Positions 13,424-36,506 of a stretch of 62,421 nt of DNA are shown piece after piece (within the stretch, counting starts at the first letter, position 1; every line of letters starts with the position of its first letter). Below the pieces are notes generated by a model. The model was not told the origin of the DNA, ran no database searches, and saw only the letters and a program-made list of their open reading frames with translations. The stretch lies in IMG/VR virus record IMGVR_UViG_3300035665_000031, positions 1 through 62,421 of that record; one strand, written 5' to 3'. A program made the position numbers and the translations under genes. This DNA comes from a virus. Lineage: Duplodnaviria; Caudoviricetes.

Positions 13424-13489
13424 ATGTTGTATATACGATATAATTTGTTGGGTATGCGATAAGAAATTACGCATATAAGTAAGTTATGT
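13424..13489 (+). mobile_element. attI-like site heading array 2
   Basis: Two TGTTG-ATA-CGATA direct repeats then ATAAGTAAGTTAT; conserved at 28027 and 36441. Confidence 0.75.
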
Positions 13490-13495
13490 GCAAGG

Positions 13496-13699
13496 CTACT
13501 TTCTCGTAAAAACGACATTTTGTAACCAAACATCAAAAGAGCTTTCTTGTAATATTTTTTCCTTAGTTTCTTTAGGATGAACAAGTATTCCATAATTCAT
13601 CATGTTCTCTAAATCCATATTTATTCTACCTCTGTGAAAGGCTTCTCGTAAAACTACCTTTGGAAAAAATATCATCAATAATCTTGTCTTAAACTTCAT
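13496..13699 (-). CDS. Cassette-borne hypothetical protein
   Basis: ORF fills cassette. Confidence 0.7.
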   Translation of the reverse strand: MKFKTRLLMIFFPKVVLREAFHRGRINMDLENMMNYGILVHPKETKEKILQESSFDVWLQNVVFTRK

Positions 13700-13856
13700 T
13701 TCGTTTTCAAATTAAATTCAGTGCTGATAAACCGCCCAGCACATAACAGCGGTTTGGCAAAAGCTGCCAGAAACATTGTGCGAACTTTGAACTTTCCGTT
13801 AGGCAGCCTTCGCCAAGCCGCAAAACGTTATAACCAATACTACTTTTCTGTTTCAA

Positions 13857-14069
13857 TTAACTTATCGGTATAAAATGTTTTAAAACTATATCTAAAGGAA
13901 CTAAACGACAATTATAGTCTAATCCGTCTTCTGTTTCTGATTCTATAACAATCACTTGCTTATCATTATCATTTAATTCATTTTTAGCTACCCTTTTATC
14001 TAAAGAATATTCAACACCCTCAATAAATGGTGGTATAGTTTTAATACATTTTATTTTGGTTATCCACAT
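13857..14069 (-). CDS. Cassette-borne hypothetical protein
   Basis: ORF fills cassette. Confidence 0.7.
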   Translation of the reverse strand: MWITKIKCIKTIPPFIEGVEYSLDKRVAKNELNDNDKQVIVIESETEDGLDYNCRLVPLDIVLKHFIPIS

Positions 14070-14153
14070 ATAATATTTTTTATAATTCGTACTGGTTATA
14101 ACAAATGATAAACAACATTAAAACGATTGTTTATCATCGGACGTTAGCTGCCA

Positions 14154-14465
14154 TTAACTGACAACCTCCCATTCTTGAAAATCTGACGGAACAAACGACC
14201 AAAACATAGGATAAATTTGACTGCTTTTCAAGTCTGTTTTTACAAAAAAATCACCCATTACCCATCCTTGCAAATACACAGGCTTATTTTTTATACCATA
14301 CATAGGCAGACTTGAAGAAGTATAAATATGTTTTGGTAGTTTAACCTTTATGCCTTGCAGATTGGTATCTTTTGGTAGGTCCTTGATTTTAACGGCAGCT
14401 AACACAGTATTGCCGACAATAGCGGGTTCTGTGGTATGTTCAACTTTTGTTTTTCTATTTGACAT
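14154..14465 (-). CDS. Cassette-borne hypothetical protein, start inside attC loop
   Basis: PAIVGNTVLAAV is encoded by the hairpin arm. Confidence 0.7.
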   Translation of the reverse strand: MSNRKTKVEHTTEPAIVGNTVLAAVKIKDLPKDTNLQGIKVKLPKHIYTSSSLPMYGIKNKPVYLQGWVMGDFFVKTDLKSSQIYPMFWSFVPSDFQEWEVVS

Positions 14466-14534
14466 TTGTTCTTAATTTTAAGTTTTGTAATTCTAATTCC
14501 GCTACTGCGGCAATACTCGGCACGTTATGTGGCA

Positions 14535-14789
14535 TTAAAAACATACCCAGAATAAAACTTTATCACCATGATTAAACCCACAGTTTAATAAATACTCATT
14601 TATAATTGGTGTATGTTCATTGTGCCCAACCCATTCTAAATTTGCCCTATCATTTCCTTTGCTTCTTTCATTTAGTTGGTATTGTTGTTCTTTGTAAACT
14701 GGGTGTTTTCTATCACCATTTGAAATTTCTTCACAAAGGTCTAATAAATCAATAACCTCCCACCTTTTTATAAAGTTTAAATCACTCAT
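14535..14789 (-). CDS. Cassette-borne hypothetical protein
   Basis: ORF fills cassette. Confidence 0.7.
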   Translation of the reverse strand: MSDLNFIKRWEVIDLLDLCEEISNGDRKHPVYKEQQYQLNERSKGNDRANLEWVGHNEHTPIINEYLLNCGFNHGDKVLFWVCF

Positions 14790-14937
14790 AACAATTAACG
14801 CCACATAACAACGTGTATAAAACATTGCCTTTGTGGTCTTTTTTTAAAGTTTATACTAAATAATTAATTTTATTCATTCTATTAAGTTCTGTGTTGGCAA
14901 CGTTTCATACACGCAGCCGTTATGTTCAATGTTGTTT

Positions 14938-15207
14938 TTAATTTTGAGTTGTTTTATTTTCACCATCACTAATTTTCACCACACCGTAATAGGAAGAATT
15001 TACCACCTTGTTTTTGTAAATGTGTGCATTCTTCAAATATTTTGGTTTAATAAAGAAATGTTTTATCTTCAAAAGTAAATTCTTCCATTTATTTTCATAC
15101 CATACAGTTTCACCATTTATTGATGTTTTTACTATTTTGGTTATGTAAGGTGCTAAAATATAACCTTTACCTAAATCTTCTTTATTTATTTTCGGATAAT
15201 TCTCCAT
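14938..15207 (-). CDS. Cassette-borne hypothetical protein (two-gene cassette)
   Basis: ORF track. Confidence 0.7.
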   Translation of the reverse strand: MENYPKINKEDLGKGYILAPYITKIVKTSINGETVWYENKWKNLLLKIKHFFIKPKYLKNAHIYKNKVVNSSYYGVVKISDGENKTTQN

Positions 15208-15208
15208 T

Positions 15209-15439
15209 TTACTCAGTTATTTTATTTATAAATTCATTTAACTTTTCTTCCATCAAAGAAATTCCTTCATCCATATTACTACAAATAACCATTGTTTTAA
15301 AATTTGGTAGTTCTGGGAACATTGTCCACTGATTAATGGAATTTCTTTTTAAAGAACCAATCACTAAGTTTCCACAAACGAATTCATAAAAACTCTTTTT
15401 GTTGGTTTTATCTCTTAATTCAATATTTTTCGTTTTCAT
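15209..15439 (-). CDS. Cassette-borne hypothetical protein (two-gene cassette)
   Basis: ORF track, ATG start chosen. Confidence 0.65.
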   Translation of the reverse strand: MKTKNIELRDKTNKKSFYEFVCGNLVIGSLKRNSINQWTMFPELPNFKTMVICSNMDEGISLMEEKLNEFINKITE

Positions 15440-15594
15440 AACATTTTTTTTATATGGTAAAATTAAAAACAACACAAAACATAACAAGGTGTATAAGAAA
15501 GTTTTTTACAAAGGTAAGTATAAATTTCGAGATATCCAAATAAAAAACCTTCTCATACACCCAACCGTTATGTGTAATAAAATAAAAATTATGA

Positions 15595-15807
15595 TTATCC
15601 TATATCACATTTGGTTATTAATCCTTTATCAATCTCCAAGTTTATTCTATCAAATCGTAAATCCATTGTGATTGCATAATTATTAGAATCTTCTCTTGTT
15701 ATTCTAACCTTATAATCATTTTCTTTACATAATTCTGTTCCTGATTCTTTATTCATTCCGATTAAAGATTCTAATAATTCATTACTTCCGTTTCTATTTC
15801 TTCCCAT
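15595..15807 (-). CDS. Cassette-borne small protein resembling I78/I13 peptidase inhibitors
   Basis: LIG...VRI...AITMDLRFDRINL...ITKCDIG pattern. Confidence 0.6.
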   Translation of the reverse strand: MGRNRNGSNELLESLIGMNKESGTELCKENDYKVRITREDSNNYAITMDLRFDRINLEIDKGLITKCDIG

Positions 15808-15890
15808 AAATTTAAATTTGTATAATTTTTATTTTACATACACATAACAAATGATAAACAACATTAAAACGATTGTTTATCATCGGAACG

Positions 15891-16229
15891 TTAGGTAACA
15901 TTCAAGTTACCTCGTACCACTAATTTTATCTCTTCGTACTCTTTATTTTCTTTAGCGTATTCAGTTTCAGTAATTTCATCTAAAGCAAGTGAACATAAGT
16001 CACAAACTTTGGAAATACAATAATATGTGGTGCTACCAATTTTAAATCTTCTTCGTGTATCCAACCCATCACGTTTTAAATTATTCTCATTTTTCCAAAG
16101 TTGGAAATCATAGGTGTCTAATGAAATTACTGCAATGGAACGTTGCCTAACACCAGATATATTTAAGTGCTTAGTTTCGTACTCTTGAACTATCCGTTTT
16201 GCTTTTAAATAATCTTTTTCTGTTATCAT
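15891..16229 (-). CDS. Cassette-borne hypothetical protein, start inside attC loop and stop at the GTTA core
   Basis: ORF track; HLNISGVRQ encoded by hairpin arm. Confidence 0.7.
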   Translation of the reverse strand: MITEKDYLKAKRIVQEYETKHLNISGVRQRSIAVISLDTYDFQLWKNENNLKRDGLDTRRRFKIGSTTYYCISKVCDLCSLALDEITETEYAKENKEYEEIKLVVRGNLNVT

Positions 16230-16289
16230 AATTTTTCGTTTTTAAATCGCACCTAAATATATCTGCGAACCGTTATAAGTAATATTACT

Positions 16290-16661: not shown

Positions 16662-16665
16662 ATAT

Positions 16666-19152: not shown

Positions 19153-20169
19153 TTATATCTTATTTGTGCTGTATCTTTTATTTTTAATTTCATCATATGA
19201 TAATCCATTCATTTCAGCTAGGATAGCTAAGCCAATCAACTTATATAAGCTAAACACAGTAGTGTTTTTAGAAAACAAATAATTGGCATCGGTAGAGTGA
19301 GTATAAATGGAATCTGATACAATTATTTCGCTTATACTTTTCTTATTTAGTTTATTAAAAACATCCCCAGAAAAAACAGCGTGACTACCAATAACGATAA
19401 CTGATGATGCCCCCATTTCCATCATTAAATCAGAAGCTAATCCTATTGTACCACCAGTATCAATAATATCGTCAATAATAATAACCCGTTTATCTTTGAC
19501 ATCACCAATAAGTGTCATCTTATCTATTTGATTTGGGCCACTTCTTTCCTTATCAACTGTAACGTAAGATAAATTAATATCATGATATTTGGATAAATAA
19601 TCTCTCATTTGTTTAACCCTCTTTGAACCACCAGCGTCTGGTGTTGCAAGGATTGTATTAATATTATCATGCTTGATTAACTTGGCTATATAATCACCAA
19701 ATAAATTCTTCCCTTCAATATGGGTGATTGGAATATCGACAAACCCCTCCAATTGTTGAGCATGTAAGTCGAATAATATCATGTCTGTTGCACCCAAATT
19801 TTCAATTATCTTAAGGATTACCTTGGAACCAATTGGACCTCGTTTATCATCCTTCTTATCTTGCCTAGAAAATGGCATATAAGGCATTACAACAATAATC
19901 TTTTCGGCATTTGCTCTAACACAAGCATCAATTGAAAAATACAACCTATGTAGCTTCTCAGAATCATTTGGGGTGGTCAATAAGAATACTCTTTTGCCTC
20001 TAACTGATGAGGTAAAGTCAACACTAAATTCTTTGTCTGAATAATGTGGTGATTTCATTTCACCAAATTGTAAATTTGCGAATTCATTGGTTCGTAAATA
20101 ATTTAATATTGAGTCAACAAACCCATCTTTTTTGTTTCTATTTTCTAAGTCGAAAATGATTGATTCCAT
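19153..20169 (-). CDS. prs: Ribose-phosphate pyrophosphokinase family protein
   Basis: PYMPFSRQDK, DLHAQQ, PDAGG, IIDDIIDTGGT. Confidence 0.9.
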   Translation of the reverse strand: MESIIFDLENRNKKDGFVDSILNYLRTNEFANLQFGEMKSPHYSDKEFSVDFTSSVRGKRVFLLTTPNDSEKLHRLYFSIDACVRANAEKIIVVMPYMPFSRQDKKDDKRGPIGSKVILKIIENLGATDMILFDLHAQQLEGFVDIPITHIEGKNLFGDYIAKLIKHDNINTILATPDAGGSKRVKQMRDYLSKYHDINLSYVTVDKERSGPNQIDKMTLIGDVKDKRVIIIDDIIDTGGTIGLASDLMMEMGASSVIVIGSHAVFSGDVFNKLNKKSISEIIVSDSIYTHSTDANYLFSKNTTVFSLYKLIGLAILAEMNGLSYDEIKNKRYSTNKI

Positions 20170-20216
20170 GATTATTTATTTAAAAATTTTAGTGTAACAA
20201 ATATAGTGAATTTAAA

Positions 20217-20663
20217 TCATTTTACCAAATATTTTGATATATCAGTGTATAAAGCTAACTGTTTTAACCCAGAACTTGATATGTGTTGAAACTCAGGTTC
20301 ACAAAATATCGATATCAGTTGAATATTCGGTAAGAAATCTCTTAGGTATTGATATTGAGTGATTTCATATTGTAAATCAGTTGTGTTTCTTAATCCACGA
20401 ATGATTGTTACATTATCATCCGCTTCAAAATAATCTGTGATGAATTCAGTTAGTAACCCATTATATTCAGCATATGTATAATCACGTTTTATTAACGCTG
20501 GAATTTCATATGTTGGTGAATCTTTTTGTGGGTTCTTACCTCTGGCGATAACAACCTTATCGAATATCCTTGAAGCTTTTTTGATTACATCATAATGACC
20601 GATATGCATTGGTGAAAATGAGCCAGGGTATACACCAATCTTAAGATTTCCACTCATAGTCAT
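20217..20663 (-). CDS. coaD: Phosphopantetheine adenylyltransferase-like HIGH nucleotidyltransferase
   Basis: YPGSFSPMHIGH, IIRGLR, HISSS. Confidence 0.8.
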   Translation of the reverse strand: MTMSGNLKIGVYPGSFSPMHIGHYDVIKKASRIFDKVVIARGKNPQKDSPTYEIPALIKRDYTYAEYNGLLTEFITDYFEADDNVTIIRGLRNTTDLQYEITQYQYLRDFLPNIQLISIFCEPEFQHISSSGLKQLALYTDISKYLVK

Positions 20664-20985
20664 GAAATCTTTTATAGAAGCTACCGACCTTGAATTGCTG
20701 AAACTGGATACATATTTCTAATGCTTTAGGTAGTTCTTTAAAAAGCTTATCAAACCTTTCAACTTCTTCATCAGTATATGTTATTAGTTCAAAATCATTA
20801 TCTGATTTAGTTCTTGTTGCATTTAATATTAAATCCATTCCATCATATAATGAATTTTCACCAAATGAAATCCTGGATACATCCAAGTCATCCGTTGATA
20901 CAATCAAATATTCATCAGTTGTAAATCTAAGGTGCTTAAGTAAATTAAGGTGTTCCTGTGTTAGTTCAAATCTCTCTATCCCCAT
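20641..20985 (-). CDS. Hypothetical protein
   Basis: ORF track, operonic. Confidence 0.7.
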   Translation of the reverse strand: MGIERFELTQEHLNLLKHLRFTTDEYLIVSTDDLDVSRISFGENSLYDGMDLILNATRTKSDNDFELITYTDEEVERFDKLFKELPKALEICIQFQQFKVGSFYKRFHDYEWKS

Positions 20986-21289
20986 TCTTTTTATTTTTAT
21001 ATTTGATTAGTTTCATAAACGTATCTTGGTCCTTCCACATCAATTTCTCCAACACAACCTTATTAAGCCATGCGTTATCCTCATCAATTTTATCTAAAAT
21101 CTTAGTGTTATTCTCCTTTAAGATTACACCAATAACATCAGAGATTGATATTTCATTCTTTAGGATTTCAATTACAATCTTAACCAGTTCCTGATGTGAT
21201 AATAGAATGGCCTCATCTTTTGATTTGAGTAAATAATTTTTAAAACGTTTCTCATCATTAAAAACATTTACATTTGGTATATGAGCCAT
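20966..21289 (-). CDS. Hypothetical protein
   Basis: ORF track, operonic. Confidence 0.7.
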   Translation of the reverse strand: MAHIPNVNVFNDEKRFKNYLLKSKDEAILLSHQELVKIVIEILKNEISISDVIGVILKENNTKILDKIDEDNAWLNKVVLEKLMWKDQDTFMKLIKYKNKKNGDREI

Positions 21290-21805
21290 TTAACAACTAA
21301 TTGGATGATTTTCGTTATCTATATCCTTGTAAAGCGCATAAGAAACCTTTGGATTGTAATCCAATACTACAACATCTTCACCAGCTAATTCTTTTTCTAT
21401 GATATTTCTAATAATATTAGGGTCTCCCACAGCAAGTCCACTTCCTAGTTTCGGTAGTCCAAATCTTTTGCCTGAGAACATTTCTTTAGCGATTCTCAAG
21501 GCTGAAGTCAAGGCTTTGTAATCCAAGTCAACTCTACCGACAGCTTGACCACCATAAGTGTATTGCCCATAAGCATTAACAATGGTTGGTGTTGTGTTTT
21601 TGGTGTATGTGATACCACCTAACTTAAGTCTATCACCAGTTTTGGTTTCCAAGTCAACTTGGTAGGCTTCTGGGTATTTTTCTTTGATGGATTTTGCTAT
21701 ACCACTACCCATTCTACAAAAACAATTTGCACAATGAATTATCACATCAAAATTATTTGCATCACGTAGCAAATCACCAACACCATATTTTATTGTTGTT
21801 TTCAT
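21290..21805 (-). CDS. Macrodomain (ADP-ribose processing) protein
   Basis: GDLL, HCANCFCRMGSGIA, PKLGSGLA. Confidence 0.88.
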   Translation of the reverse strand: MKTTIKYGVGDLLRDANNFDVIIHCANCFCRMGSGIAKSIKEKYPEAYQVDLETKTGDRLKLGGITYTKNTTPTIVNAYGQYTYGGQAVGRVDLDYKALTSALRIAKEMFSGKRFGLPKLGSGLAVGDPNIIRNIIEKELAGEDVVVLDYNPKVSYALYKDIDNENHPISC

Positions 21806-21817
21806 TTTACAAATATA

Positions 21818-22309
21818 CTATTTATTTTTCATTTGTTCGTTACGAATACGTTCTCTTACACGCATTATTGCAATACCAAGCCAGTTTGTTCCTTGCCATT
21901 TACTTTTATCAAGAACATATGGGTTTGTTTCATGTAAACCAATACCCCATATTTTATCTTCTGGACTAGCTTCCACAATTTCTCTATCACCAGAAGCAAG
22001 TAATTCTTCTTTCATCTTGGGGTTTTGTGTGAATTTAGCATAGTTACCATCAGTAACAATATCTATACAATATTTTTCCCACTTTTCTTTATTAAACCCT
22101 ATGACTGTTTTACCAATAGCTTTTTGTGTTGCTGGTTCTTCCTCCAACATTATTTCTCGGTAAGCATCAAAATCATTGAACATAAGAGCTTTTTTAGCCA
22201 TCATGTATTGTTCCGTGCAATTATATTCAACCCCATCGATTATAAAAAATGAGGGACACCATTGGGACATCGTACCGCCCCAGAAAAAAACATAGTTATC
22301 TGTTATCAT
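21818..22309 (-). CDS. NADAR (YbiA-like) family protein
   Basis: TEQYMMAKKA, KFTQN, VEASPEDKIWGIG, GTNWLG. Confidence 0.92.
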   Translation of the reverse strand: MITDNYVFFWGGTMSQWCPSFFIIDGVEYNCTEQYMMAKKALMFNDFDAYREIMLEEEPATQKAIGKTVIGFNKEKWEKYCIDIVTDGNYAKFTQNPKMKEELLASGDREIVEASPEDKIWGIGLHETNPYVLDKSKWQGTNWLGIAIMRVRERIRNEQMKNK

Positions 22310-22560
22310 TATTCTATTGTATATTCAGTTATTTTTGTTATTGGTTTTGGTGATACAACACAACCTTTTATAATCAATACACCATCACCCCAATAGTTCG
22401 TATCATTTTCTTTTGGTAATTTATCAAAAACTTCACGACCAGCCCCATAATACCCATCATTTATGCGTATTAAAAGTTCTTCTTTATTTATGGCTTCAAC
22501 ATTTGTGTCACCATCTGAATTTGTTATTACAAAGTAAGTTTCCATATTAGTTGTTTTCAT
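22309..22560 (-). CDS. Hypothetical protein
   Basis: ORF track, translationally coupled. Confidence 0.7.
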   Translation of the reverse strand: MKTTNMETYFVITNSDGDTNVEAINKEELLIRINDGYYGAGREVFDKLPKENDTNYWGDGVLIIKGCVVSPKPITKITEYTIE

Positions 22561-24188
22561 TAGTAGTTATTTAAATCTTTACTGGGTGCGTACTTCTTAA
22601 GTAGATTACGTCTTTCAGTTATAATTGCTTGTGATGCTGGATAATTATGATTTGTGTCACTATATAAATTCAGTGGCATATTATCCATCTGTTCTCTAAT
22701 ACGTGCCCTAATGGTAGGGAAATCATCATCCTGAGCAATACCAAATGGCTTATTTATACGCAAACCATTAAAGTATTCAACCAAGGCATTTGGGCCAACT
22801 TCATAATCAAAAATAATTGTTCTTTTTGATTCTAAGGCTTCTGGTGTTCTGAGTAGTTTAAAAGGACCACATAAGGTTGTCTTGCCAAGTGTTTCTGAAA
22901 ACTTAACAACACCTTGATGGTCATAACCCATAGCATTCAATGCATATTTGGCTGAAATCATATCTCTACTCAATCCATTTCTTAACCCACCACCTGAACC
23001 AAACAACCCCCAAGCATAAAATGCAAAGTCTTCAGCAATCAATGCATCCATAATTTCAAGCATAACATCAAATGTCATTCCATCACCTTCAATAAATCTA
23101 AGTGATGTTGGAAACTTCCAAGTCTTTCCATCAATTTTTTGATATGATACTAACCCAGCTTTTACTGCTTCTCTAACAATAAACATAACTTCTTCCAATG
23201 GGTTTCCAGAATCTGGTCTAGCTACAACTATCTTTCCATTGGCTTCTTTTATTGAACGTAGGGCTAATGGAATTAAATGTTTAATTACAGCATTCTTGGA
23301 ATCGTAACAATCATCAACCATTGATAGTATTGAATCATCTGGCGATTCGTTATAAAGTGTTTCATAACAATCACCTTCAAACTCATATGATTGAACGTTA
23401 CGGTGAGCTAAGGCGTAAACGGATGCTGCGACAAATGTTTCACCAGCATTTTTCCATGCTTGATATGCACCTGATGTTGTATCAGTATTTGGGAAAGTAT
23501 ATAAATGAACCATTCCAAGTTCTTCGGATTCTTGTTCGGTCATACCAGCCCTATCCCCAAAATCGGTAAGAATCAACGAAGCTGATAAATTTAAATCTTC
23601 ATCACTTATATTTGGGTTAACTAGTTTTATTTTTTCCTTTACCTTTTTATAAAAATGTTCATTCTGAGTAACCCTAGCTGAAGTTGACCAAACTTGCAAT
23701 AGTTTTGATTCGAACCAAGCGGATAATTCACCCTTATGTTTTGATTGAGACCAGATTTGTAGGGCTGGTTCATTTGGATAAACAACACTTCCTTCTGGAA
23801 GTCCTTCAATAAGAATTGGTGGTCTACCATTAAAATGGTCTACAACATCTCTCCACATTTGTTCATCAAACTCATACCTGGCTAACCCTTTGTTTGTTGC
23901 TCTAAAATTAGCTAAGAACCTTTTGGTTTCATCAATTTCCTCATGTGTAATTGGGTCATAGAATAACCTTTCTAATATTCGTTGAATACCAGTAAAAATA
24001 ATTCTATGGTCATCAGCATCATATAACTTAGGGTTTACTGAATGTAGTATACGTCTAAATGTAACGTAATAAACTGATTTATCTTTGGCTAATGTACTTT
24101 GAAATTGACCACTACCTATTGTATAGGCATCAACCAACAATCGTGGTGTCTTAAAAATTTTTCTTTTGGGTAATATTACTTCTGACAT
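22560..24188 (-). CDS. Nicotinamide phosphoribosyltransferase family protein
   Basis: DAY, LPEGS, DFGDR, RPDSG, IEGDG, FGSGGGL motifs. Confidence 0.88.
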   Translation of the reverse strand: MSEVILPKRKIFKTPRLLVDAYTIGSGQFQSTLAKDKSVYYVTFRRILHSVNPKLYDADDHRIIFTGIQRILERLFYDPITHEEIDETKRFLANFRATNKGLARYEFDEQMWRDVVDHFNGRPPILIEGLPEGSVVYPNEPALQIWSQSKHKGELSAWFESKLLQVWSTSARVTQNEHFYKKVKEKIKLVNPNISDEDLNLSASLILTDFGDRAGMTEQESEELGMVHLYTFPNTDTTSGAYQAWKNAGETFVAASVYALAHRNVQSYEFEGDCYETLYNESPDDSILSMVDDCYDSKNAVIKHLIPLALRSIKEANGKIVVARPDSGNPLEEVMFIVREAVKAGLVSYQKIDGKTWKFPTSLRFIEGDGMTFDVMLEIMDALIAEDFAFYAWGLFGSGGGLRNGLSRDMISAKYALNAMGYDHQGVVKFSETLGKTTLCGPFKLLRTPEALESKRTIIFDYEVGPNALVEYFNGLRINKPFGIAQDDDFPTIRARIREQMDNMPLNLYSDTNHNYPASQAIITERRNLLKKYAPSKDLNNY

Positions 24189-26369: not shown

Positions 26370-27191
26370 TTAAGAATTTCTCATTACTGAAGTTATATCT
26401 TTTACCAATTCCAAGTGTTGGTCACCATAAGGTTGCCAAGCTAACCCAAGTGTTTTCAAATCATATGATTTAACTATGGTACTATATGTTGTAACACCTT
26501 CTGGATGTCCTATCACATGGATTGAGTCAGCTAACTCAACTGCTAAGTGTAAATCGTGAGTTGAAAAGATAATTGTATTCATTTCATGTGCGGCCTGGTA
26601 TTTTTTGATTGCTTCCTTCAATTTCTCAATGGAAATAACATCTAATGATGCCGCTGGTTCATCAAATATCATAAAATGCTTATTTGATAAGATATTTTCT
26701 AGAATAGCCAAACGTTGCCTTTGTCCACCACTAAGGTCACATGAAAATTTATCTTTATGCTCCAATAACCCCCATTCAGATAAATAACCATCTATAATGG
26801 TCTTTTTTTCTTGTTTTGAAGCATTATTACCCCTTAAGGCATACTCACACATAGAATAAACTGATTTGTGTCTAAAAAGCGTGTATTTTTGACTCACTAG
26901 ACCAATATCACCAACATCAATTGGCTTAGCCACGTCATTATCGGTAATATTCAAATCTTTTATCAATATTGAACCTTGTGTTGGCTTAAGCAAACCAGTT
27001 AGTCCTTTGAATAGGGTTGATTTGCCTCTACCTGACCTACCCAATATTGCTATAATTTGACCAGTTGCTTCGAAATCATTTCTAACCACATTTCTTTCTG
27101 TGAAAGAAATTGATTTAAGGATGGGATTGTCTTTAGAGTAACCCAAATCAACATTTTGTAACTCTAAGAGTGTATTTGTTAAGCTGTACAT
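26370..27191 (-). CDS. ABC transporter ATPase (NitT/TauT-like)
   Basis: GRSGRGKST, LSGGQRQR, FDEP, STHD. Confidence 0.92.
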   Translation of the reverse strand: MYSLTNTLLELQNVDLGYSKDNPILKSISFTERNVVRNDFEATGQIIAILGRSGRGKSTLFKGLTGLLKPTQGSILIKDLNITDNDVAKPIDVGDIGLVSQKYTLFRHKSVYSMCEYALRGNNASKQEKKTIIDGYLSEWGLLEHKDKFSCDLSGGQRQRLAILENILSNKHFMIFDEPAASLDVISIEKLKEAIKKYQAAHEMNTIIFSTHDLHLAVELADSIHVIGHPEGVTTYSTIVKSYDLKTLGLAWQPYGDQHLELVKDITSVMRNS

Positions 27192-27193
27192 AA

Positions 27194-27958
27194 TTAAAAT
27201 TTTGAATAAGGAAATGATAATTTTCTTATTTGGGTTAATAACCAATCCAAAACAACACCTATGATAATAATTATGATTTGTACGGCAATTACTCTACCGT
27301 TGCTTCCAATTCTATCACCATTTTTTATCAAAAACCCAAGACCACCAGCTGAAATCAAAATTGATTCAACCGTGACAATTGACATCCAAACAATTGCTAA
27401 ATTTTGTCTTAAGCACTCAATAACATAATCTAATCTACCTACAATAATAACTTCATAAAGAGTCTCCCATTTGGTACAACCTTGTGTTCTAGCATGTTCA
27501 AATTCATCATCTGGAATATCTTTTATCATAGCTAATAATGATGTTATCAAAAAAGATGTCATAAATGCAACCAAGACCCATATCTGAATCATTCTAGCGT
27601 CAGTCACGAACATTGTTATGTAAAATGTTATTCCAGTAAGTGGTAAATACCTTAGCTTTGAAATAATGATTGATAGTGGTTTTAATTCACTTATTGGTGA
27701 CGAATACACTATCAGTAAAGAAATAATTAAAGATATAGCTATTGCTGAAAAACATAAAGTTAATGAGGATAGAATATGAACCACCAACCCATCACGCCAT
27801 AAATCACCAAAACCAGTAAAAACCTGGTTGATGCTTGGAAACATGTGGGTTGTGTTAAAAAGTGAATGTGACCCCCACAATAATAATAAAATAAAAACCC
27901 ATCCACCTAATATGAGTTGGTTTTGACTCTGGGTTAGTTTTGAAAAAGGTTTGAACAT
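27194..27958 (-). CDS. ABC transporter permease (NitT/TauT-like)
   Basis: Multiple TM helices, EHARTQG EAA-like loop, GGLGFLI. Confidence 0.88.
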   Translation of the reverse strand: MFKPFSKLTQSQNQLILGGWVFILLLLWGSHSLFNTTHMFPSINQVFTGFGDLWRDGLVVHILSSLTLCFSAIAISLIISLLIVYSSPISELKPLSIIISKLRYLPLTGITFYITMFVTDARMIQIWVLVAFMTSFLITSLLAMIKDIPDDEFEHARTQGCTKWETLYEVIIVGRLDYVIECLRQNLAIVWMSIVTVESILISAGGLGFLIKNGDRIGSNGRVIAVQIIIIIIGVVLDWLLTQIRKLSFPYSKF

Positions 27959-28026
27959 GAATTTTAATTATTTTTGAATCACAAAGATATGTAATAATTT
28001 ACAATAAACCAAATTTAATTTACTAA

Positions 28027-28092
28027 ATGTTGTATATGCGATATAAATTGTTGAATATACGATATAAAGTTGCGTCAATAAGTAAGTTATAT
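28027..28092 (+). mobile_element. attI-like site heading array 3
   Basis: atgttgtatatgcgatataaattgttgaatatacgata...aataagtaaGTTAT, matching 13424 and 36441. Confidence 0.75.
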
Positions 28093-28170
28093 ACAATGCT
28101 ACATTATCGCTTCGTATTAAGTTTCGTGGTTATATTCTTTTTGTTTTATTTTTTTTACCTAACACACTTT

Positions 28171-28647
28171 TTAAATTTTAGTTTCTTTATCAAGAAATTT
28201 TACATCATATTTTTTTGATAGTTTATTAAACAGTGGTTTTAATTTTAGAAATCCAGTTTCACTATATGATGATGTTTCAAATTGATAATCATTTTCAGAG
28301 AACCATCTAAAAATATAATCACTTAATTTAGAAGCATAACCCATATTTTCAAAATTATTTAATATTGATAAGTATGATAACCAATATGTATTTTCAATAT
28401 ATGGTGATTTTCTTATATGTGCGAGTCCCACCATCTTATCATCAATGTATAATACGAAAAAATATACATTATCAATACCGCTAAAATCAGAACTATTATC
28501 AAAGTATTTAAAACTATTAATTTCTTTTATTTTTTCATTATAAAATCTCAAAAATTCTCTACCCGTATAATGATTAATTTTATAATCTGTATTCTGTTCA
28601 TTCAAATATTCACGTATAGTTGTCTTTATAAATTTTCTTAATTTCAT
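28171..28647 (-). CDS. Cassette-borne GNAT acetyltransferase-like protein with EYLNE leader
   Basis: LSYLSILNNFENMGYASKL resembles GNAT motif A. Confidence 0.65.
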   Translation of the reverse strand: MKLRKFIKTTIREYLNEQNTDYKINHYTGREFLRFYNEKIKEINSFKYFDNSSDFSGIDNVYFFVLYIDDKMVGLAHIRKSPYIENTYWLSYLSILNNFENMGYASKLSDYIFRWFSENDYQFETSSYSETGFLKLKPLFNKLSKKYDVKFLDKETKI

Positions 28648-28866
28648 AATAATAAATAGTTGTTATTCTATATATAAATATTCAAATTTTAAATTCCCAC
28701 CCACAAAAATAAAACAAAAAGATTTCGTTCTTCGTAAGTAGTTTAGTGGTAAATTTCCGCACTGCATATAACAGCGTATATAAGAAATGGTACATAAACA
28801 TTTGTGTTAAATTCCAATATTCTACAAGTGCCACTTCTCATATACGCAAACCGTTAGGCGAAAGTG

Positions 28867-29217
28867 CTACGTTCCTCGTTCTACCCATCGTTCCAATTCT
28901 TCGAGTGTTAAATTTCCAAATGTTGTTATTTGGCTTTCTGTATATGGTTCATCCCAATACTCAATCAACTTACCTTCTTTTGTTGTAAAAGATTGCCATA
29001 TCTTAAATTCTCTTTGTGTCCAATTTTTTACTTTATCTGCCGTTTCAGTTCTGATGCTTAATCCTATTCTGTGGTCAGAAAAGCCAAAATAATGCTTTCC
29101 GTTTAACACTCTATGTAAGTGCCAATAACCAAATAGCGATACTAAATTAACCGCACCTTCGCCTAACAGCACATTGCCAAAAGTGGGGTTTTCGTTTTTC
29201 AAATCAACATTTTCCAT
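28867..29217 (-). CDS. Cassette-borne hypothetical protein, start inside attC loop
   Basis: PTFGNVLLGEG encoded by hairpin arm. Confidence 0.7.
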   Translation of the reverse strand: MENVDLKNENPTFGNVLLGEGAVNLVSLFGYWHLHRVLNGKHYFGFSDHRIGLSIRTETADKVKNWTQREFKIWQSFTTKEGKLIEYWDEPYTESQITTFGNLTLEELERWVERGT

Positions 29218-29307
29218 ATTATCAAATTTTGTATTTCAATTAAAGTTTAGTGGTTCAATGCCCCACCTTCGGCAATCTGCAAAACGTTATAAGTAATAAA
29301 ACAAAAA

Positions 29308-29553
29308 TTATGATTTATTTAATTCTCTATCTATAACTTTACCAAAATGTTCCCAATAAAATTCAGCACTATCTTGTTGTCTTAACAATCTATCATCATC
29401 AATGAGTTTGAAAAGTTGTCCAAAATCTGCTTTACATTCTAATGTTTTATTGTCTTTTTTTACCAATAAAGTATCTCCATTCTTTTCAAATGAACATTTT
29501 GGTAAAAGTTTTCTGAGAATTTCTAATCCTCGTTCATCAAATTCATTTTTCAT
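29308..29553 (-). CDS. Cassette-borne hypothetical protein
   Basis: ORF fills cassette. Confidence 0.7.
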   Translation of the reverse strand: MKNEFDERGLEILRKLLPKCSFEKNGDTLLVKKDNKTLECKADFGQLFKLIDDDRLLRQQDSAEFYWEHFGKVIDRELNKS

Positions 29554-29638
29554 ATTGTATAATTTTTGTTTTACATACTTATAACAAAGTGTAAAAAACA
29601 TTAAAACGATTTTTTACACCCAACCGTTATAACCAATA

Positions 29639-29941
29639 CTACATTTGCGTTTCAAATTTATCTGGATATGCAGTTTTTATAATATTGTAAACAAACTCAT
29701 TTGCTATCATTTCACCATAAGGAGAACAAGCAATATCTTCTGCAAAATCATTGTAACTTAAAAATGTTTTTACACCCATAATTTCAATATCAACCCCAAT
29801 TTTTCCAGCTTTAGCATCTTCTGTTGGTTCTAATCTATACATTTCGGTACTAATTAACTTTACATCAGTTCCACAAAAACATTTTTTCATCACCTCAATT
29901 GCTCCATAAACTATTGGTGAAATTTCTTTATTTGTTTCCAT
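29639..29941 (-). CDS. Cassette-borne hypothetical protein
   Basis: ORF fills cassette. Confidence 0.7.
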   Translation of the reverse strand: METNKEISPIVYGAIEVMKKCFCGTDVKLISTEMYRLEPTEDAKAGKIGVDIEIMGVKTFLSYNDFAEDIACSPYGEMIANEFVYNIIKTAYPDKFETQM

Positions 29942-30090
29942 ATTTTTATTTGTTTTTCAATTTAAGTTTTTTATTAAATAAACCGTACTGGTTATAACAA
30001 GGTGTATAAGAAAGTTTGCTATAAAGTTTAGTAGTAATTTGAAAGTTCATCTAAGCAAACCTTCTCATACACCCAACCGTTATGTGTAAT

Positions 30091-30312
30091 TTATACTTGA
30101 CCTCCAGTAATCATAAAATAATTATCAACAATCTTCTTACCACCTTCTATATCAGTATTGAATCTATGACCAACCAATTCATATGTTTTATCAGTTAGTT
30201 CCATATGACAATCGCAGTTGAAGTGTTGGTGGTTCATATCCCACGCTTTAGGTACTACCTTTAATGTTCTCATAATTATTTTATGAATATCCAGCATTTC
30301 ACTTTGTTCCAT
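30091..30312 (-). CDS. Cassette-borne hypothetical protein
   Basis: ORF fills cassette. Confidence 0.7.
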   Translation of the reverse strand: MEQSEMLDIHKIIMRTLKVVPKAWDMNHQHFNCDCHMELTDKTYELVGHRFNTDIEGGKKIVDNYFMITGGQV

Positions 30313-30404
30313 ATTTCAATTTAATTTTAAGTTTGATAAACCACACATAACAAATGATAAACAACATTAAAACGATTGTTTATCATCAGACGTTATAACC
30401 AATA

Positions 30405-30713
30405 CTACTTTAGTTCTTCGATTTTAGTTTCGTTTGGAAACTTTTTAAAATCATATCGAACACTATATAATATGTCCTCAAACCAATCATCTTTGTTTGA
30501 ACCATTAACTATTTTATCTTTCCAAGATTTTATTTCATATAAATAAATTACATCTGGATTAACTCGTTCAATTTCTTTAAACCATAACTTCATACCACCA
30601 TCGCCTTCTCTATACATTGAAGTTTTGACACACCATTTTTCATTAGGATATTGTACTTCTTCTGGTTTAGTATTTTCATCTTGTAGTGGTCGTTTCACTA
30701 ATTTAATTTCCAT
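30405..30713 (-). CDS. Cassette-borne hypothetical protein
   Basis: ORF fills cassette. Confidence 0.7.
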   Translation of the reverse strand: MEIKLVKRPLQDENTKPEEVQYPNEKWCVKTSMYREGDGGMKLWFKEIERVNPDVIYLYEIKSWKDKIVNGSNKDDWFEDILYSVRYDFKKFPNETKIEELK

Positions 30714-30832
30714 AATTTAAAAAGTTTTATTTTGTTTTAAATTTAAGTTCCTACTAATTTTACCGTACTGGTTATAACAGTAAATATATTGCATTAAAAC
30801 GACAATATATTTGCAAACGTTATAACCAATTG

Positions 30833-31069
30833 TTAATCAAACTCTGGTTCATTATATATACCTCCATAATATTCTGTTCCACATTTATCAGAACAAAAAA
30901 TTTCATCATAATCACCGCTTTCAATCATTATCCAAGTTTCAAATTCTTCACCGCATTTAACGCAAGAATTTTTTGTTCTTTCACGTAAACAACTGGTTAT
31001 AACATCAGATATACGCAATTCTTTTTCTGCGTTGTCTGATACATTTTCTTCGTTTTTTAGTTTTTCCAT
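30833..31069 (-). CDS. Cassette-borne Zn-finger-like protein, start inside attC loop
   Basis: CVKC...FCSDKC; ELRISDVITS from hairpin arm. Confidence 0.7.
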   Translation of the reverse strand: MEKLKNEENVSDNAEKELRISDVITSCLRERTKNSCVKCGEEFETWIMIESGDYDEIFCSDKCGTEYYGGIYNEPEFD

Positions 31070-31118
31070 ATCTATTAAGTTTGTGTTAGAACTGCGTATA
31101 TCTGAGAACCGTTATGTG

Positions 31119-31346
31119 TCATTTTAGACGAGCATACCATTTCAATCTATCATCATTACCAATTTCAACCAATTCAAACTTAACATTACAATTTTCTAAT
31201 ATTTTCCAAGGGTGAAAATTAAAACTCAAAGGGTCTATTGGTAATTCACCATTTCTATTACCAGTTAAATTTGAATTATCACACTTTACAACCCAATAAG
31301 GTTCAATGTTGAAATTGGTTGATTTAATTAAAGTTCCTGTTTCCAT
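31119..31346 (-). CDS. Cassette-borne hypothetical protein
   Basis: ORF fills cassette. Confidence 0.65.
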   Translation of the reverse strand: METGTLIKSTNFNIEPYWVVKCDNSNLTGNRNGELPIDPLSFNFHPWKILENCNVKFELVEIGNDDRLKWYARLK

Positions 31347-31491
31347 ATTAATTTGAATTAAAAACGACACATAACAAGGTGTATATGTAATGTGAGGTTC
31401 AGTGGTTTATCAAAGTTTATCATTCTAATCATCATTTGTGGTTAAGCCAAGTGTAGTGTTTCAAATCTCACACTACATATAGACCCAACCG

Positions 31492-31829
31492 TTAGCTGCA
31501 AGTGCTAAAAGCATCATACAACTTTTTGGCTTTATCTCCACAAATACCAACTACTTTTTCAGCTGCTTCTTGTGCTGACAATCCTTCGCCCAAAAACTTA
31601 GTATCAAATCCAAGTTCATAGCAATGAAAAACCCAAGAAGGTTTATAATCACGGTGTCCACAAGTAATTGTTATTCTACATTCACCAACATTTGTACTAA
31701 AACCAGTTGGTATTTTTCTTTAGAATCTCTACTATATGAAGTGGTATCTTTCCAAACCACACCAGCAGCTAACAGTACCTTTGCAAAGGTAAGGCAGCTT
31801 TCTTGTAATTTTGATAGTTCTCGTTCCAT
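31492..31829 (-). pseudogene. Frameshifted cassette gene
   Basis: MERELSK...SRDSKEK then a one-base loss in an A run near 31715; the other frame runs IPTGFST...LYDAFSTCS to TAA at the GTTA core. Confidence 0.65.
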
Positions 31830-32827: not shown

Positions 32828-33126
32828 TTTAATTGGTTTAGTATTTTATTCTTATTGATATGCTTGATTAAGACATCCCCATGACATGAATTAGGCTTAC
32901 AAACACAACCTAATCTTTTCCCTTCCAATTCATGCAAACAAGACATCAAATATGGATTACCCAATAAATATTCTTCATACTTGATTATAGCTTCCTCTCT
33001 TGAATCAACAATAAATTTAGCATTTGTAACTCCAGATTTAATATGAGTGAATGGGTTACCCCATTTGGATGGTCTACATATCAACACATCATATGGTTCA
33101 TGTTTTATGTTTACAACAGTTGTCAA
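32824..33126 (-). CDS. DUF4326 family protein
   Basis: RPSKWGNPF, LGCVCKP..CHGDVL. Confidence 0.85.
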   Translation of the reverse strand: MTTVVNIKHEPYDVLICRPSKWGNPFTHIKSGVTNAKFIVDSREEAIIKYEEYLLGNPYLMSCLHELEGKRLGCVCKPNSCHGDVLIKHINKNKILNQLK

Positions 33127-34079
33127 TTAATTGGGGTTATGTCTAATGAACTAATATTTGAATCCGTACCACCCTTGGCGAATTTAACCTTATAATACTT
33201 TCCATCCCCATTTATTTTTTTTAACATAGAGTCTTTCCAGTATTTAACAAATGCATCACTCATCTTATCGGTTATTTTAAAGTCTGAATTATTCTTAACC
33301 CACTCTATATGTTGTGGTGATATATCTCTGATATCAATAATAACCCCTTTGGTTCCCTTGTTTATTGAAACCCTAACATCCCGTTGAGGTTCGCTTGAAT
33401 CAGCTGAATAATGATTTGTTGGTGTTAAAATATCATTATTTAATATTACCTTAGAACCAACCATCAACCCACTAGCTTCTGAATCATCTTTCAAATAAAT
33501 ATTGTTAGTATCAAAAACACATATCTGATTTCCATCTAATAATCTACCAGTAACTGAACGACCAGTAAATAAAACAGCATCATATTTCGCTTTTAAGCTA
33601 TCTGTTAAATTAATTGTAGCTTGTATTCTACCAGGTTCACCTGATTTAGCTAATTCTAGGTCATAACCATTATCAACCCACCATTGCATCATCTTTTTGG
33701 GTGATGCAAAATTAATGGTTTCCAATCGTGGAACATTCAAATAAAACTCTTTTAAATTTTTTGTTGTATCACCATTAAATTTTTTAGCTATAGCTTTTAC
33801 TGTTGTAAAATATATTCCATAACCTAAATGATGTATTGGTGGTGGTGGACCCATTGGATAATATGGGTTTGGTGGGTAACCATGCTTAACAGAACCACTT
33901 CTGGGTGAATCGATGAATATCTTGAAACCATCGGATTGAATCAGATTATGTCTATCGGAATCTGTACCATGATAGACTGGACCAAATAAGTTATCTTGTT
34001 TTGCTGTATGTGTTGATACCTTATTAAGTGTCTCATTAAATAAAGCCTCATGTAAAAATTGTTTGATTAATTCACTCAT
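33123..34079 (-). CDS. Putative ADP-ribosyltransferase-fold protein
   Basis: VYHGT...GYGIYFT...QICVFD. Confidence 0.6.
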   Translation of the reverse strand: MSELIKQFLHEALFNETLNKVSTHTAKQDNLFGPVYHGTDSDRHNLIQSDGFKIFIDSPRSGSVKHGYPPNPYYPMGPPPPIHHLGYGIYFTTVKAIAKKFNGDTTKNLKEFYLNVPRLETINFASPKKMMQWWVDNGYDLELAKSGEPGRIQATINLTDSLKAKYDAVLFTGRSVTGRLLDGNQICVFDTNNIYLKDDSEASGLMVGSKVILNNDILTPTNHYSADSSEPQRDVRVSINKGTKGVIIDIRDISPQHIEWVKNNSDFKITDKMSDAFVKYWKDSMLKKINGDGKYYKVKFAKGGTDSNISSLDITPIN

Positions 34080-34094
34080 ACTAATAAATATGAG

Positions 34095-34475: not shown

Positions 34476-34530
34476 ATATTTTTTTTACAAATATACTAAA
34501 TAATTTTAATTTTGTAAAAGTGTTGACATG

Positions 34531-34629: not shown

Positions 34630-34817
34630 AAAATAATCACCCAAAACCCTAGATTGGTTATTAACAGTGATTCGGATATCTAGTAGTAGCACATTCACTC
34701 AAATACGTTTTTTAAATGAAATTATGTGTTCGTTAAGGTTACTAGAGTCTATTAGTCTTTGTTTGCCTTTGACTACTGGTTATTTCGATATCGTTTTTTA
34801 CAAATATACTAAATATA

Positions 34818-35555
34818 TTAATCATCTAAATATTTTTGAATATTATCTTCATAAGATTTAACCCATTTTCTTATTGCGTTATCACTAACACCATATTTTC
34901 TACTAAGTGAAAGATAACTATTATTTTTTAAATCATTAATTAATTCTTCATATGTTGGTCTATTAACTCTACGTTGTTTTAATGCTCTATCAATTTCTTT
35001 TTGTGTTTGAACTCTAGGTTGTTTAATTAATGGAGGTAGGTTTTTATTTAACTCAATTAATTTTAATTTATTCTGATGAATTTTAGTGTTCTTCCCACAA
35101 TAATTATGGGTTAATGCGTGACAATTAGGACATAATATTTGTATATTTTTTAAATTATTATCAAATCTATCACCATTTATGTGGTGTAATTCTAGTGGTA
35201 TTGGTTTATCAGCCCAAATATATAATTTGCAATTCTCACATTTATGTTCTTTATAACCCTCTCTAATTAAACGAATTCGTAAATTATTTGATGAAATATA
35301 TTTAACTTTATTTGTTAAAATATCTTCCATTTTAATTCTAAAATTAAATGTCTCTTTTCTACCCAACTTGGTTCCGAGTGACCATTTATGTCCAAGAAAA
35401 TGTGATATGTCTATATTAAATGATTTCAATCTTTTCTTTAAAGTCATAAAATTACTACCACATATAACTATATTTAGTTTACGACAAACATCAGATATTG
35501 TTTTTGAATCACTAACCGCTTTTTTTAATTCTTCTTCTGTAAATTTATATTTCAT
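34818..35555 (-). CDS. HNH endonuclease with C-terminal HTH (probable homing endonuclease)
   Basis: CENC, LELHHINGD, NIQILCPNCH; directly after tRNA-Leu. Confidence 0.9.
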   Translation of the reverse strand: MKYKFTEEELKKAVSDSKTISDVCRKLNIVICGSNFMTLKKRLKSFNIDISHFLGHKWSLGTKLGRKETFNFRIKMEDILTNKVKYISSNNLRIRLIREGYKEHKCENCKLYIWADKPIPLELHHINGDRFDNNLKNIQILCPNCHALTHNYCGKNTKIHQNKLKLIELNKNLPPLIKQPRVQTQKEIDRALKQRRVNRPTYEELINDLKNNSYLSLSRKYGVSDNAIRKWVKSYEDNIQKYLDD

Positions 35556-35559
35556 ATTG

Positions 35560-35632
35560 TACTCTTAGAGAGATTCGAACTCTCAAACACGGGTTCTAAA
35601 GCCGTGACGGTTACCAATTACGTCATAAGAGC
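35560..35632 (-). tRNA. tRNA-Leu(TAG), no long variable arm
   Basis: gctctta/taagagt acceptor, TTTAGAA loop, gagag-TTCGAAT-ctctc. Confidence 0.75.
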
Positions 35633-35682
35633 ATGTTAATCTGTCCAACCATTACATCAGACGGATTTTTATTTATTAAAGG

Positions 35683-35771
35683 TGGGCCTTGAGGGGGTCG
35701 AACCCTCACCCTACTATTACTTCAGAACACTGTTTAAGAGTGTCGTGTACTGCCAATTTCACCAAAGGCCC
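35683..35771 (-). tRNA. tRNA-Leu(TAA)
   Basis: gggcctt/aaggccc acceptor, acact-CTTAAAC-agtgt arm, long variable region. Confidence 0.88.
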
Positions 35772-35780
35772 ATTTTATCT

Positions 35781-35984
35781 TTACACCAAAAAATGTCTCA
35801 ATTTTGAATTATTCATTTCTTTTTGTTCTTTTATTTTTGTGGTTAATTCATCAATAATATTAGTATAGAGTTCTTCTCTATCACTATTGATATTTTTCTC
35901 ACACTCTGGGTGTAAGGTATAGATTTTATCTACCACCTTAACCAGCCCAGTTATTTCTTTATTGCAATATTCACACGTAAACAT
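35781..35984 (-). CDS. Small Zn-binding hypothetical protein within tRNA cluster
   Basis: CEYC...HPEC. Confidence 0.6.
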   Translation of the reverse strand: MFTCEYCNKEITGLVKVVDKIYTLHPECEKNINSDREELYTNIIDELTTKIKEQKEMNNSKLRHFLV

Positions 35985-36000
35985 AATTTCTTTTTTTTAG

Positions 36001-36073
36001 TACCGCTAAATGGAATCCAACCATTGTATCTACTTTGTAAGAGTAGTGTTCTGAAGCACTGAACTATAGCGGC
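36001..36073 (-). tRNA. tRNA-Val(TAC), divergent D and T loops
   Basis: gccgcta/tagcggt acceptor, ctact-CTTACAA-agtag arm. Confidence 0.75.
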
Positions 36074-36090
36074 ATATTTTTTATTTCCAG

Positions 36091-36161
36091 AGCGTGGTGA
36101 TGGACTCAAACCATCATACCATGTTTTGCAGACATGTCCCTAATCTTTCGGGCAACCAGGC
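36091..36161 (-). tRNA. tRNA-Cys(GCA)
   Basis: catgt-CTGCAAA-acatg arm, U73 discriminator. Confidence 0.82.
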
Positions 36162-36169
36162 TTATAATG

Positions 36170-36205
36170 AAAAAACCCTCAGATTTTTAACGTCTGAGGG
36201 TTTTT
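36170..36205 (-). terminator. Attenuator-like terminator ahead of tRNA cluster 2
   Basis: aaaaaccctcaga/tctgagggttttt stem with U run, about 8 nt before tRNA-Cys. Confidence 0.8.
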
Positions 36206-36225
36206 AAATATTCTTTAAAGTTAAT

Positions 36226-36297
36226 TTAAACGCACAGACAACCATTACCTAATAATAGGCATAACACTAGGACTAATATGTTGTTTGATGTTCTCAT
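36226..36297 (-). CDS. Leader peptide 2 (MRTSNNILVLVLCLLLGNGCLCV)
   Basis: Hand translation; 13 of last 16 codons are Leu/Val/Cys, matching downstream tRNAs. Confidence 0.75.
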   Translation of the reverse strand: MRTSNNILVLVLCLLLGNGCLCV

Positions 36298-36506
36298 TTC
36301 TTTTTGTTTAATAAATATATGCAAAGATACTACTTATTTATGATATAGCAATACTTTATTTATATTTATTTCTTATTTTGTTGATTATCAACTGATTATT
36401 TTTAATATATGATATGAAATATCGTATATATTACTAATAAATGTTGTATATGCGATATAAATTGTTGGATATACGATATGAATTATCGTCAATAAGTAAG
36501 TTATAA
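36275..36506. repeat. About 230-bp duplicated module (leader start, promoter, attI-like site), second copy near 13259-13489
   Basis: Long identical blocks, e.g. tgttctcatttctttttgtttaataaatatatgcaaagatac and ttgattatcaactgattatttttaatatatgatatgaaatatcgtatatattactaata. Confidence 0.9.
36441..36506 (+). mobile_element. attI-like site heading array 4
   Basis: Same direct repeats and AATAAGTAAGTTAT core as 13424 and 28027. Confidence 0.75.

Follow-up and report, generated by a model that had tools for sequence, protein, structure and literature searches.

We describe three copies of a 63-nt element in a 62,421-nt virus record (IMG/VR IMGVR_UViG_3300035665_000031; Duplodnaviria, Caudoviricetes), each at the head of an array of hairpin-bounded gene cassettes. 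The record was analyzed over its whole length, called the window below; it has a G+C content of 29.7% and reads as a fragment of a jumbo phage, probably a phage of Bacteroidota, as judged by a promoter motif and by relatives. On balance we favor the view that the elements are attI-type entry sites served in trans by a Xer-like recombinase without the I2 insertion of the integron integrase IntI, which would act at G/TT on hairpins folded from the bottom strand and would more likely come from the host than from a phage gene lying off the contig. The sites and arrays are as follows.

13424 to 13494, plus strand: entry site 1, with 21-nt repeat units at 13424 and 13445, a left arm at 13466 to 13476, a 7-bp spacer at 13477 to 13483 ending in the G of GTT, and a right arm, the start of the first cassette, at 13484 to 13494.
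28027 to 28097, plus strand: entry site 2, with the G of GTT at 28086; 33 of its last 40 nt are identical to a sister element found with 11 different right sides.
36441 to 36511, plus strand: entry site 3, with the G of GTT at 36500 and the weakest core of the three.
13483 to 16275, plus strand: array A1, seven cassettes with attC-like hairpins of 48 to 128 nt; the longest open reading frames (ORFs) are on the minus strand.
28086 to 31790, plus strand: array A2, eight cassettes, the first a GNAT acetyltransferase; a distal decayed cassette has R'' but no attC right arm.
36500 to 39570, plus strand: array A3, seven cassettes, one with a SLOG-family gene; a distal decayed cassette has R'' but no attC right arm.
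469 to 3323, plus strand: array A0, seven attC-like hairpins, one cassette an RNA ligase; its head lies off the contig.

An initial annotation, made from the sequence alone, had placed elements of about 65 bp, each with two direct repeats, at the heads of the visible arrays. All three were confirmed there at about 63 nt, and the repeats recur with a period of 21 nt (pattern starts at 13425/13446, 28028/28049, and 36442/36463), exact in five of the six units and with one mismatch in the other. Pairwise, the elements are identical at 51, 52, and 58 of 63 nt (81 to 92%). The divergence said to follow GTT is real, with identity dropping to 18 to 24 of 60 positions, but it is complete only past an 11-bp right arm, TTA[TG]NNNN[AC]A[TG], which opens with the TT of GTT and is the cassette's own start. 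The core consists of two 11-bp arms separated by a 7-bp spacer; a core motif derived from the three sites themselves occurs three times in the window, always on the plus strand, against 0.21 expected, and none of 100 shuffles contained three or more. Two further parts of the description needed amending: the element of about 65 bp is common to all three copies, but copies 1 and 3 share a longer, 245-nt block, and although the element is non-palindromic overall, in copies 1 and 3 a short inverted repeat is made up of its second repeat and left arm, as read from the sequence. Decayed attC hairpins were considered as the source of the elements and ruled out, there being no matching R'' upstream and the GTT being unpaired.

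The cassettes themselves mark the GTT as a junction. Across 28 cassettes, the six bases that follow GTTA agree with the complement of the cassette's own R'' flank at 5.3 of 6 positions, compared with 2.6 of 6 for non-own pairs (0 of 20,000 permutations). For the first cassettes of A1 to A3 the own-flank complement extends to 9, 9, and 10 of 10, which indicates that the GTT of each element is a true cassette junction. A purpose-made, asymmetric detector of the pattern TAAC...CGTT found 29 attC-like hairpins on the plus strand and none on the minus strand, in four arrays; five shuffles gave 0 to 2 matches. A long-gap attC pattern applied to five records gave two matches, which were left aside. 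The array heads carry a lone GTT without a hairpin, A2 and A3 decay at their tails, and the bottom strand is predicted to fold better in 25 of the 29 hairpins. Hairpin orientation, head-to-tail polarity, and folding thus support the earlier assignment of the plus strand as the top strand. By this detector, rather than by the covariance model of IntegronFinder, the arrays are CALINs, that is, attC clusters without a nearby intI.

The longest ORF runs antisense in all 28 cassettes. The hairpin arms differ by 3 nt in 19 and by 4 nt in 10 of the 29 hairpins, an asymmetry partly imposed by the detector, with which a free-offset scan agrees; in the eight hairpins that were folded, stems are predicted to be mostly uninterrupted. 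In these predictions the hairpins carry a one-sided bulge of 3 to 4 nt, not the canonical unpaired central spacer and extrahelical bases. Four hairpins (1548 to 1660, 1802 to 1916, 15482 to 15570, and 36815 to 36892) hold a CAAA..TA box, presumably a Bacteroidota −7 promoter on the minus strand, and such boxes could serve the antisense gene on their left. A family match was obtained for cassette genes encoding an RNA ligase (716 to 1225), a GNAT acetyltransferase (28171 to 28647), and a SLOG protein (38934 to 39290); most others are without a match, and PADLOC matched none of 22 cassette and neighboring proteins. A0 includes a 113-nt cassette without a real ORF (1913 to 2021), and mismatched flanks at 553 to 1339 and 1913 to 2021 suggest internal deletions.

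The cores were then compared with two matrices. The host matrix was built from 17 chromosomal attI-like sites, dominated by Bacteroidota and mostly from Flavobacterium, which lie 90 to 140 nt downstream of the recombinase gene and were defined by cassette complementarity; it ranks the window's entry GTTs 1, 2, and 4 among 1462. The phage matrix ranks them 1, 8, and 83; under both matrices copy 1 is first and copy 3 last. Host and phage sites alike have the layout of two 11-bp arms around a 7-bp spacer. A site in a metagenome-assembled genome of Crocinitomicaceae shares 15 nt exactly with copy 1, and of 63 scanned sites two, in L479 and L505, have the same spacer type downstream of an integrase. 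The core belongs to the type that lies behind a short tyrosine recombinase in Bacteroidota chromosomes. As judged by sequence, the cores of the three sites are of host type. The matrix ranks, the cassette complementarity, and the position at array heads together bear out the proposal that these are attI-like entry sites, several in one genome.

Within the direct repeats, 11-mers at −59 and −38 score as arm-like (P of 0.002 to 0.06, uncorrected) and keep the phase of the core arm at −17. In host sites the left arm recurs 42 nt upstream; no other offset gives a better self-match in 13 of 17, and this is where the first repeat of the window lies. No such repeat was seen in the 52 nt examined of phage sites that adjoin an integrase. 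The sister element nearest to the window copies has a single unit, and the repeats are absent from most related cores. DR1 and DR2 of attI1 favor attI × attC reactions (PMC8946536), and by analogy an accessory role for the window's repeats is plausible. The close analogy with attI1 drawn in the initial annotation finds no support in that form: besides the missing repeats of integrase-adjacent phage sites and the single unit of the sister element, the recombinases linked to such sites are without the IntI insertion, and related cores also occur in mid-array.

The surroundings of the repeats raise a different possibility, that a phage sigma factor or activator acts at the element, or at its two 21-bp repeats alone, to regulate leftward tRNA and ABC-transporter operons, the cassettes being merely inserted alongside. 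Two features are relevant.

13258 to 13502 and 36275 to 36519: a 245-nt block, 84% identical in its two copies, consisting of the first part of a short leftward ORF that precedes tRNA genes, the promoter motif, and the entry site.
13305 to 13312, 27982 to 27989, and 36322 to 36329, minus strand: TAnnTTTG boxes pointing away from the array.

We take the TAnnTTTG box to be a −7 promoter box of the Bacteroidota type. Such a leftward motif lies 40 to 120 nt from each copy, and the duplication seen in copies 1 and 3 includes it; a sigma-70-type factor is encoded by the phage; and most related cores do without the repeats. The distance from box to element varies among the copies, however, whereas the repeats stay at −59 and −38 from the GTT; repeats are absent at the window's other promoter-like boxes; and the core matches integrase-linked sites. 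We regard transcriptional control as highly improbable for the element as a whole, though it could apply to the repeats alone. The leftward ORF starts before both tRNA clusters (13258 to 13300 and 36275 to 36317) are similar to each other, possibly encode leader peptides, and were duplicated jointly with promoter and entry site. In a blastn search of GenBank phages, the matches of the element region were all weak and confined to the promoter part.

No tyrosine recombinase was detected in the window, whether among its 79 ORFs (Pfam and PHROGs), by a six-frame search with PF00589, or by tblastn; the earlier statement that no integrase adjoins the sites therefore applies to the entire 62 kb. CheckV rates the record 18% complete, and the head of A0, where an integrase could sit, is not on the contig; the enzyme may thus be encoded by the host or by another part of the phage genome, or may have been lost. 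PF00589 was likewise absent from all five records with a related core, weak evidence given that these are 10 to 60% complete.

Candidate enzymes were found on other contigs. One hairpin type matched at least 133 viral stretches, 80 of them with flanks, and in 10 of these loci a divergent ORF starts near the entry GTT of the array. All 10 are tyrosine recombinases with an IntI-type N-terminal domain (one is truncated), and all score below the TIGR02249 cut-off for integron integrases; the catalytic residues are invariant in the nine that were aligned. Where VchIntIA has 82 residues, the 266-aa protein of L086 has 34, and its alignment with archaeal XerA is collinear; this indicates that it lacks the I2 insertion. 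Enough flank was available at 65 of 80 viral integrase loci, 62 of which have hairpins divergently upstream; the entry GTT lies mostly 42 to 52 nt from the start of the integrase gene. In the 80 bacterial loci, nearly all from Bacteroidota, the site is often downstream of the gene: arrays upstream of the integrase are lacking in 61 of 67, many of which have a site downstream and others neither. At L479 the enzyme has 376 aa, the site is downstream, and the first cassette gene is in sense. Related short recombinases also occur outside Bacteroidota (L231, L233, L247, and L238 from Desulfitobacterium sp.), and the seven-hairpin array downstream of L238 suggests that the system may extend to Bacillota. 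The short integrase matches 23 GenBank phage records, all at less than 60% identity; cultured phages with a 39 to 42% identical recombinase include Cellulophaga phage Ingeline and Polaribacter phage Freya (H6 to H25). Freya isolates vary in length (44 to 49 kb), and these cultured phages are possible tractable models if cassettes adjoin the recombinase.

Six large phage records (G001, G002, G006, G007, G008, and G009) were scanned whole. G008, a complete phage, has one intact integrase with its site and one entry site free of remnants; G007, also complete, has one intact integrase and a second site behind a 24-aa remnant (near 173986). G001, complete with terminal repeats, holds only a 116-aa deleted integrase (15098 to 15433) and no intact copy, and G002, rated complete, holds only a 43-aa remnant (235186 to 235305). 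In G001 a separate six-hairpin array has a site whose final 10 nt are those of copies 2 and 3; this site scores poorly on both matrices. In G001, G002, and G007 the remnants stand directly before intact entry sites, a record of repeated integrase loss with the site kept. No second entry site was found in G006 or G009 by the whole-record scan. We conclude that orphan entry sites are common and arise at least partly by integrase loss; this supports service in trans but equally allows the sites to be relics.

If they are relics, the arrays were built with an integrase that adjoined the sites or lay elsewhere in the genome and has since been lost. The remnants of 24, 43, and 116 aa, and the want of an intact copy in G001 and G002, fit such a history, as do the degenerate left arm of copy 3 and the long near-identical pieces that cover the arrays in four lake runs. 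Near the three window sites, however, no integrase remnant was found; all three heads are intact while the tails decay, the element remains 81 to 92% identical across copies, and extra copies and a different first cassette occur in the same lakes. We therefore consider the relic explanation unlikely.

The sequencing runs that cover the window best are lake-water metagenomes. Among four lake runs, one contig in one run tracks copy 2 as far as 28089 and then continues for at least 255 nt into a different sequence with a consensus cassette start. A variant of copy 3 is present on 2 to 6 contigs per run at a summed depth of 17 to 89, compared with about 4 to 13 in most non-array bins, which at the level of contigs suggests that further copies exist. 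Contig joints in these runs had short sides, were mostly due to shared hairpins of other organisms, and were not used.

The full repeat-plus-core element gave no exact-pattern match in viral contigs, genomes, or metagenomes, collections from which near records may be missing. A relaxed core pattern that included a cassette-start consensus found 10 viral and 72 metagenome loci, equivalent to 63 distinct sites. At 50 of these the downstream sequence extends for 1 kb or more; 28 of the 50 have a hairpin in the first 2.4 kb (background, 88 of 2150) and 18 a complement of at least 9 of 10 (background, 0 of 2150). The sister element is identical to the window copies at 30 to 33 of 40 nt; its 11 sites all have different right sides, and 4 of them stand in front of a homologous left gene. 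In G011, five cores located without the start constraint all have cassette-type starts. A 63-nt variant of the element with an internal inverted repeat also lies inside arrays at G011 83572, 80078, and 36606 and at G015 30267, where it stands in place of the attC right arm.

Such positions would fit an element that is mainly a cassette-terminal site of the delta-attI type, not a fixed platform, and that travels with the DNA to its left. A0 to A3 would then form one super-array in which three 5- to 12-kb blocks of phage genes, each closed by an attI-type site, can be moved by attI × attI or attI × attC reactions. In G011, G012, and G015, cores are spaced like cassettes within arrays, and one core closes, on the right, a stretch that started out as a 126-nt attC hairpin; the sister element precedes different antisense genes, and every inter-array block of the window starts at a cassette-type GTT. 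Both delta-attI cassettes and attI × attI reactions are known for IntI1 (PMC12901181; PMC4792948). Yet, as read from the sequence, a block's start is not notably complementary to the left arm of the site at its end; the last cassettes of A2 and A3 are of the ordinary decayed kind; and tRNAs and metabolic gene clusters lie within the blocks. The proposal seems to us rather unlikely, and it is compatible with sites that double as entry points.

Several observations weigh against the entry sites served in trans that we favor. Several related cores lie inside arrays at spacings of 330 to 1650 nt, which argues against a simple platform; no hairpin was detected downstream of 22 of the 50 related sites with enough downstream sequence, and the relaxed pattern that recovered them had itself required the cassette-start consensus. 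Copy 3 scores 4.4 on the host matrix, under the leave-one-out range of 6.5 to 21.5, and the sites behind that matrix are not independent, being mostly from one genus. Offset 42 is the best self-match in none of the three window copies (7, 5, and 6 of 11). The alternative first cassette of the lake contig could belong to a further copy of the element. Scans of viral contigs, genomes, and metagenomes, from which near records may be missing, recovered no locus orthologous to those of this phage, and the 54 distant loci reached through the ABC permease (51 to 64% identity) hold no array.

Under the account that we favor, a Xer-like recombinase without the I2 insertion would join the folded bottom strand of a circular cassette's hairpin to the site at G/TT, so that an array gains cassettes at its left end while older ones decay toward its right. 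The enzyme would most likely be supplied by the host during infection, as the core is host-type; otherwise it would be a single phage gene outside the contig. The sites probably multiplied by duplication, given the 245 nt shared by copies 1 and 3, and the two 21-bp repeats are probably optional accessory binding sites. Because the cassette genes are antisense, they would be read by leftward phage transcription or from promoters within some hairpins, not from a Pc at the entry site. The initial annotation had envisaged several stand-alone platforms served in trans: that they are several and stand alone was found to be so, and the service in trans is our interpretation. A more ambitious version seems possible, though we lean against it. 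In it, a jumbo phage would scatter host chromosomal attI-type sites, whose arrays a host enzyme without I2 fills in parallel, with cassettes reversed to suit phage transcription; this enzyme and the bulged hairpins free of extrahelical bases would represent a living pre-I2 stage of the integron, and attI × attI reactions between copies would shuffle the 5- to 12-kb blocks.

Class 1 integrons offer the nearest comparison. Like attI1, the window's sites are double-stranded with L and R arms, a G/TT crossover point (predicted for the window), and two upstream direct repeats, and they go with hairpin-bounded cassettes whose bottom strand folds better (PMC8946536). They differ in having no adjoining intI, in lacking sense reading in the manner of Pc (28 of 28 antisense), and in occurring as three copies within 23 kb; the linked recombinases differ by the missing IntI insertion and the hairpins by the one-sided bulge of 3 to 4 nt. 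Of the features that define integrons, the window has a simple, non-hairpin site with G/TT at the array head, R''...R' palindromes, complementary cassette ends, and a favored bottom strand; an adjoining intI, the I2 insertion (tested on linked recombinases of other contigs), extrahelical bases with a central spacer (as judged by predicted folds), and sense ORFs read from Pc are absent. The system is integron-like in its working but is not a classical integron.

The core layout also recalls dif, in which two 11-bp arms flank a 6-bp spacer. Arms of 11 bp, a short spacer, and a Xer-like enzyme without I2 are shared with Xer/dif systems, and CTXphi likewise uses a host enzyme, XerCD, on a folded single-stranded site without extrahelical bases (PMC4792948). 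Unlike these, the window has a spacer of 7 bp, and the product is a growing cassette array in the phage genome rather than a phage integrated into dif. Cassettes of the delta-attI type have attI-derived ends within arrays, as do the cores in G011, G012, and G015, but they are described for class 1 and 2 mobile integrons with IntI1 (PMC12901181), whereas each window copy heads an array that follows ordinary phage genes over 5 to 12 kb. Qi et al. in 2023 already published a prophage CALIN with an attI at its head (PMC9892861). The phage CALINs and integrons of that report were found with IntegronFinder and HattCI and are IntI-type systems; its available portion includes no multi-site jumbo phage, systematically antisense cassettes, or recombinase without I2. 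IntegronFinder 2.0 describes attI as poorly characterized outside class 1 and names one complete Bacteroidetes integron (PMC9024848), and Smyshlyaev et al. report that the insertion is not fully conserved in an integron-like subgroup (PMC8138268), which may bear on novelty. No description of a system of this type was found in the open-access full-text literature, subscription journals being outside the scope of the search.

The rest of the window is consistent with a large phage. It has seven tRNA genes and genes for NAD salvage, SbcCD, DnaJ, amidases, and a sigma-70-type factor, almost all on the minus strand. A cluster of PRPP-synthetase-like, nucleotidyltransferase-like, macro, NADAR, and NAMPT-like genes (19153 to 24188) resembles the NAD-rebuilding counter-defense pathways of phages (NARP). 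Unusual cargo consists of a 604-aa protein with a C-terminal OmpA domain (5658 to 7472), an ABC ATPase and permease (26370 to 27958), and a 563-aa RNA-binding protein (8381 to 10072) whose gene adjoins tRNAs. The region from 33123 to 34079 has a weak ART-PolyVal (ADP-ribosyltransferase) match, under the curated cut-off. A search for relatives through the M28 peptidase, aimed at the head of A0, found none.

The window thus defines a testable entry site for an integron-like system that lies outside IntI, and such systems would be expected to escape tools that rely on the IntI insertion. Escudero et al. describe the origin of the I2 domain and of attC sites as a chicken-and-egg problem (PMC4792948); an enzyme without I2 that has matching entry and hairpin sites makes this question directly testable. 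Jumbo phages with several entry sites per genome would have parallel points of gene capture, which a host enzyme may operate, and cassettes could pass between phages and the chromosomes of Bacteroidota.

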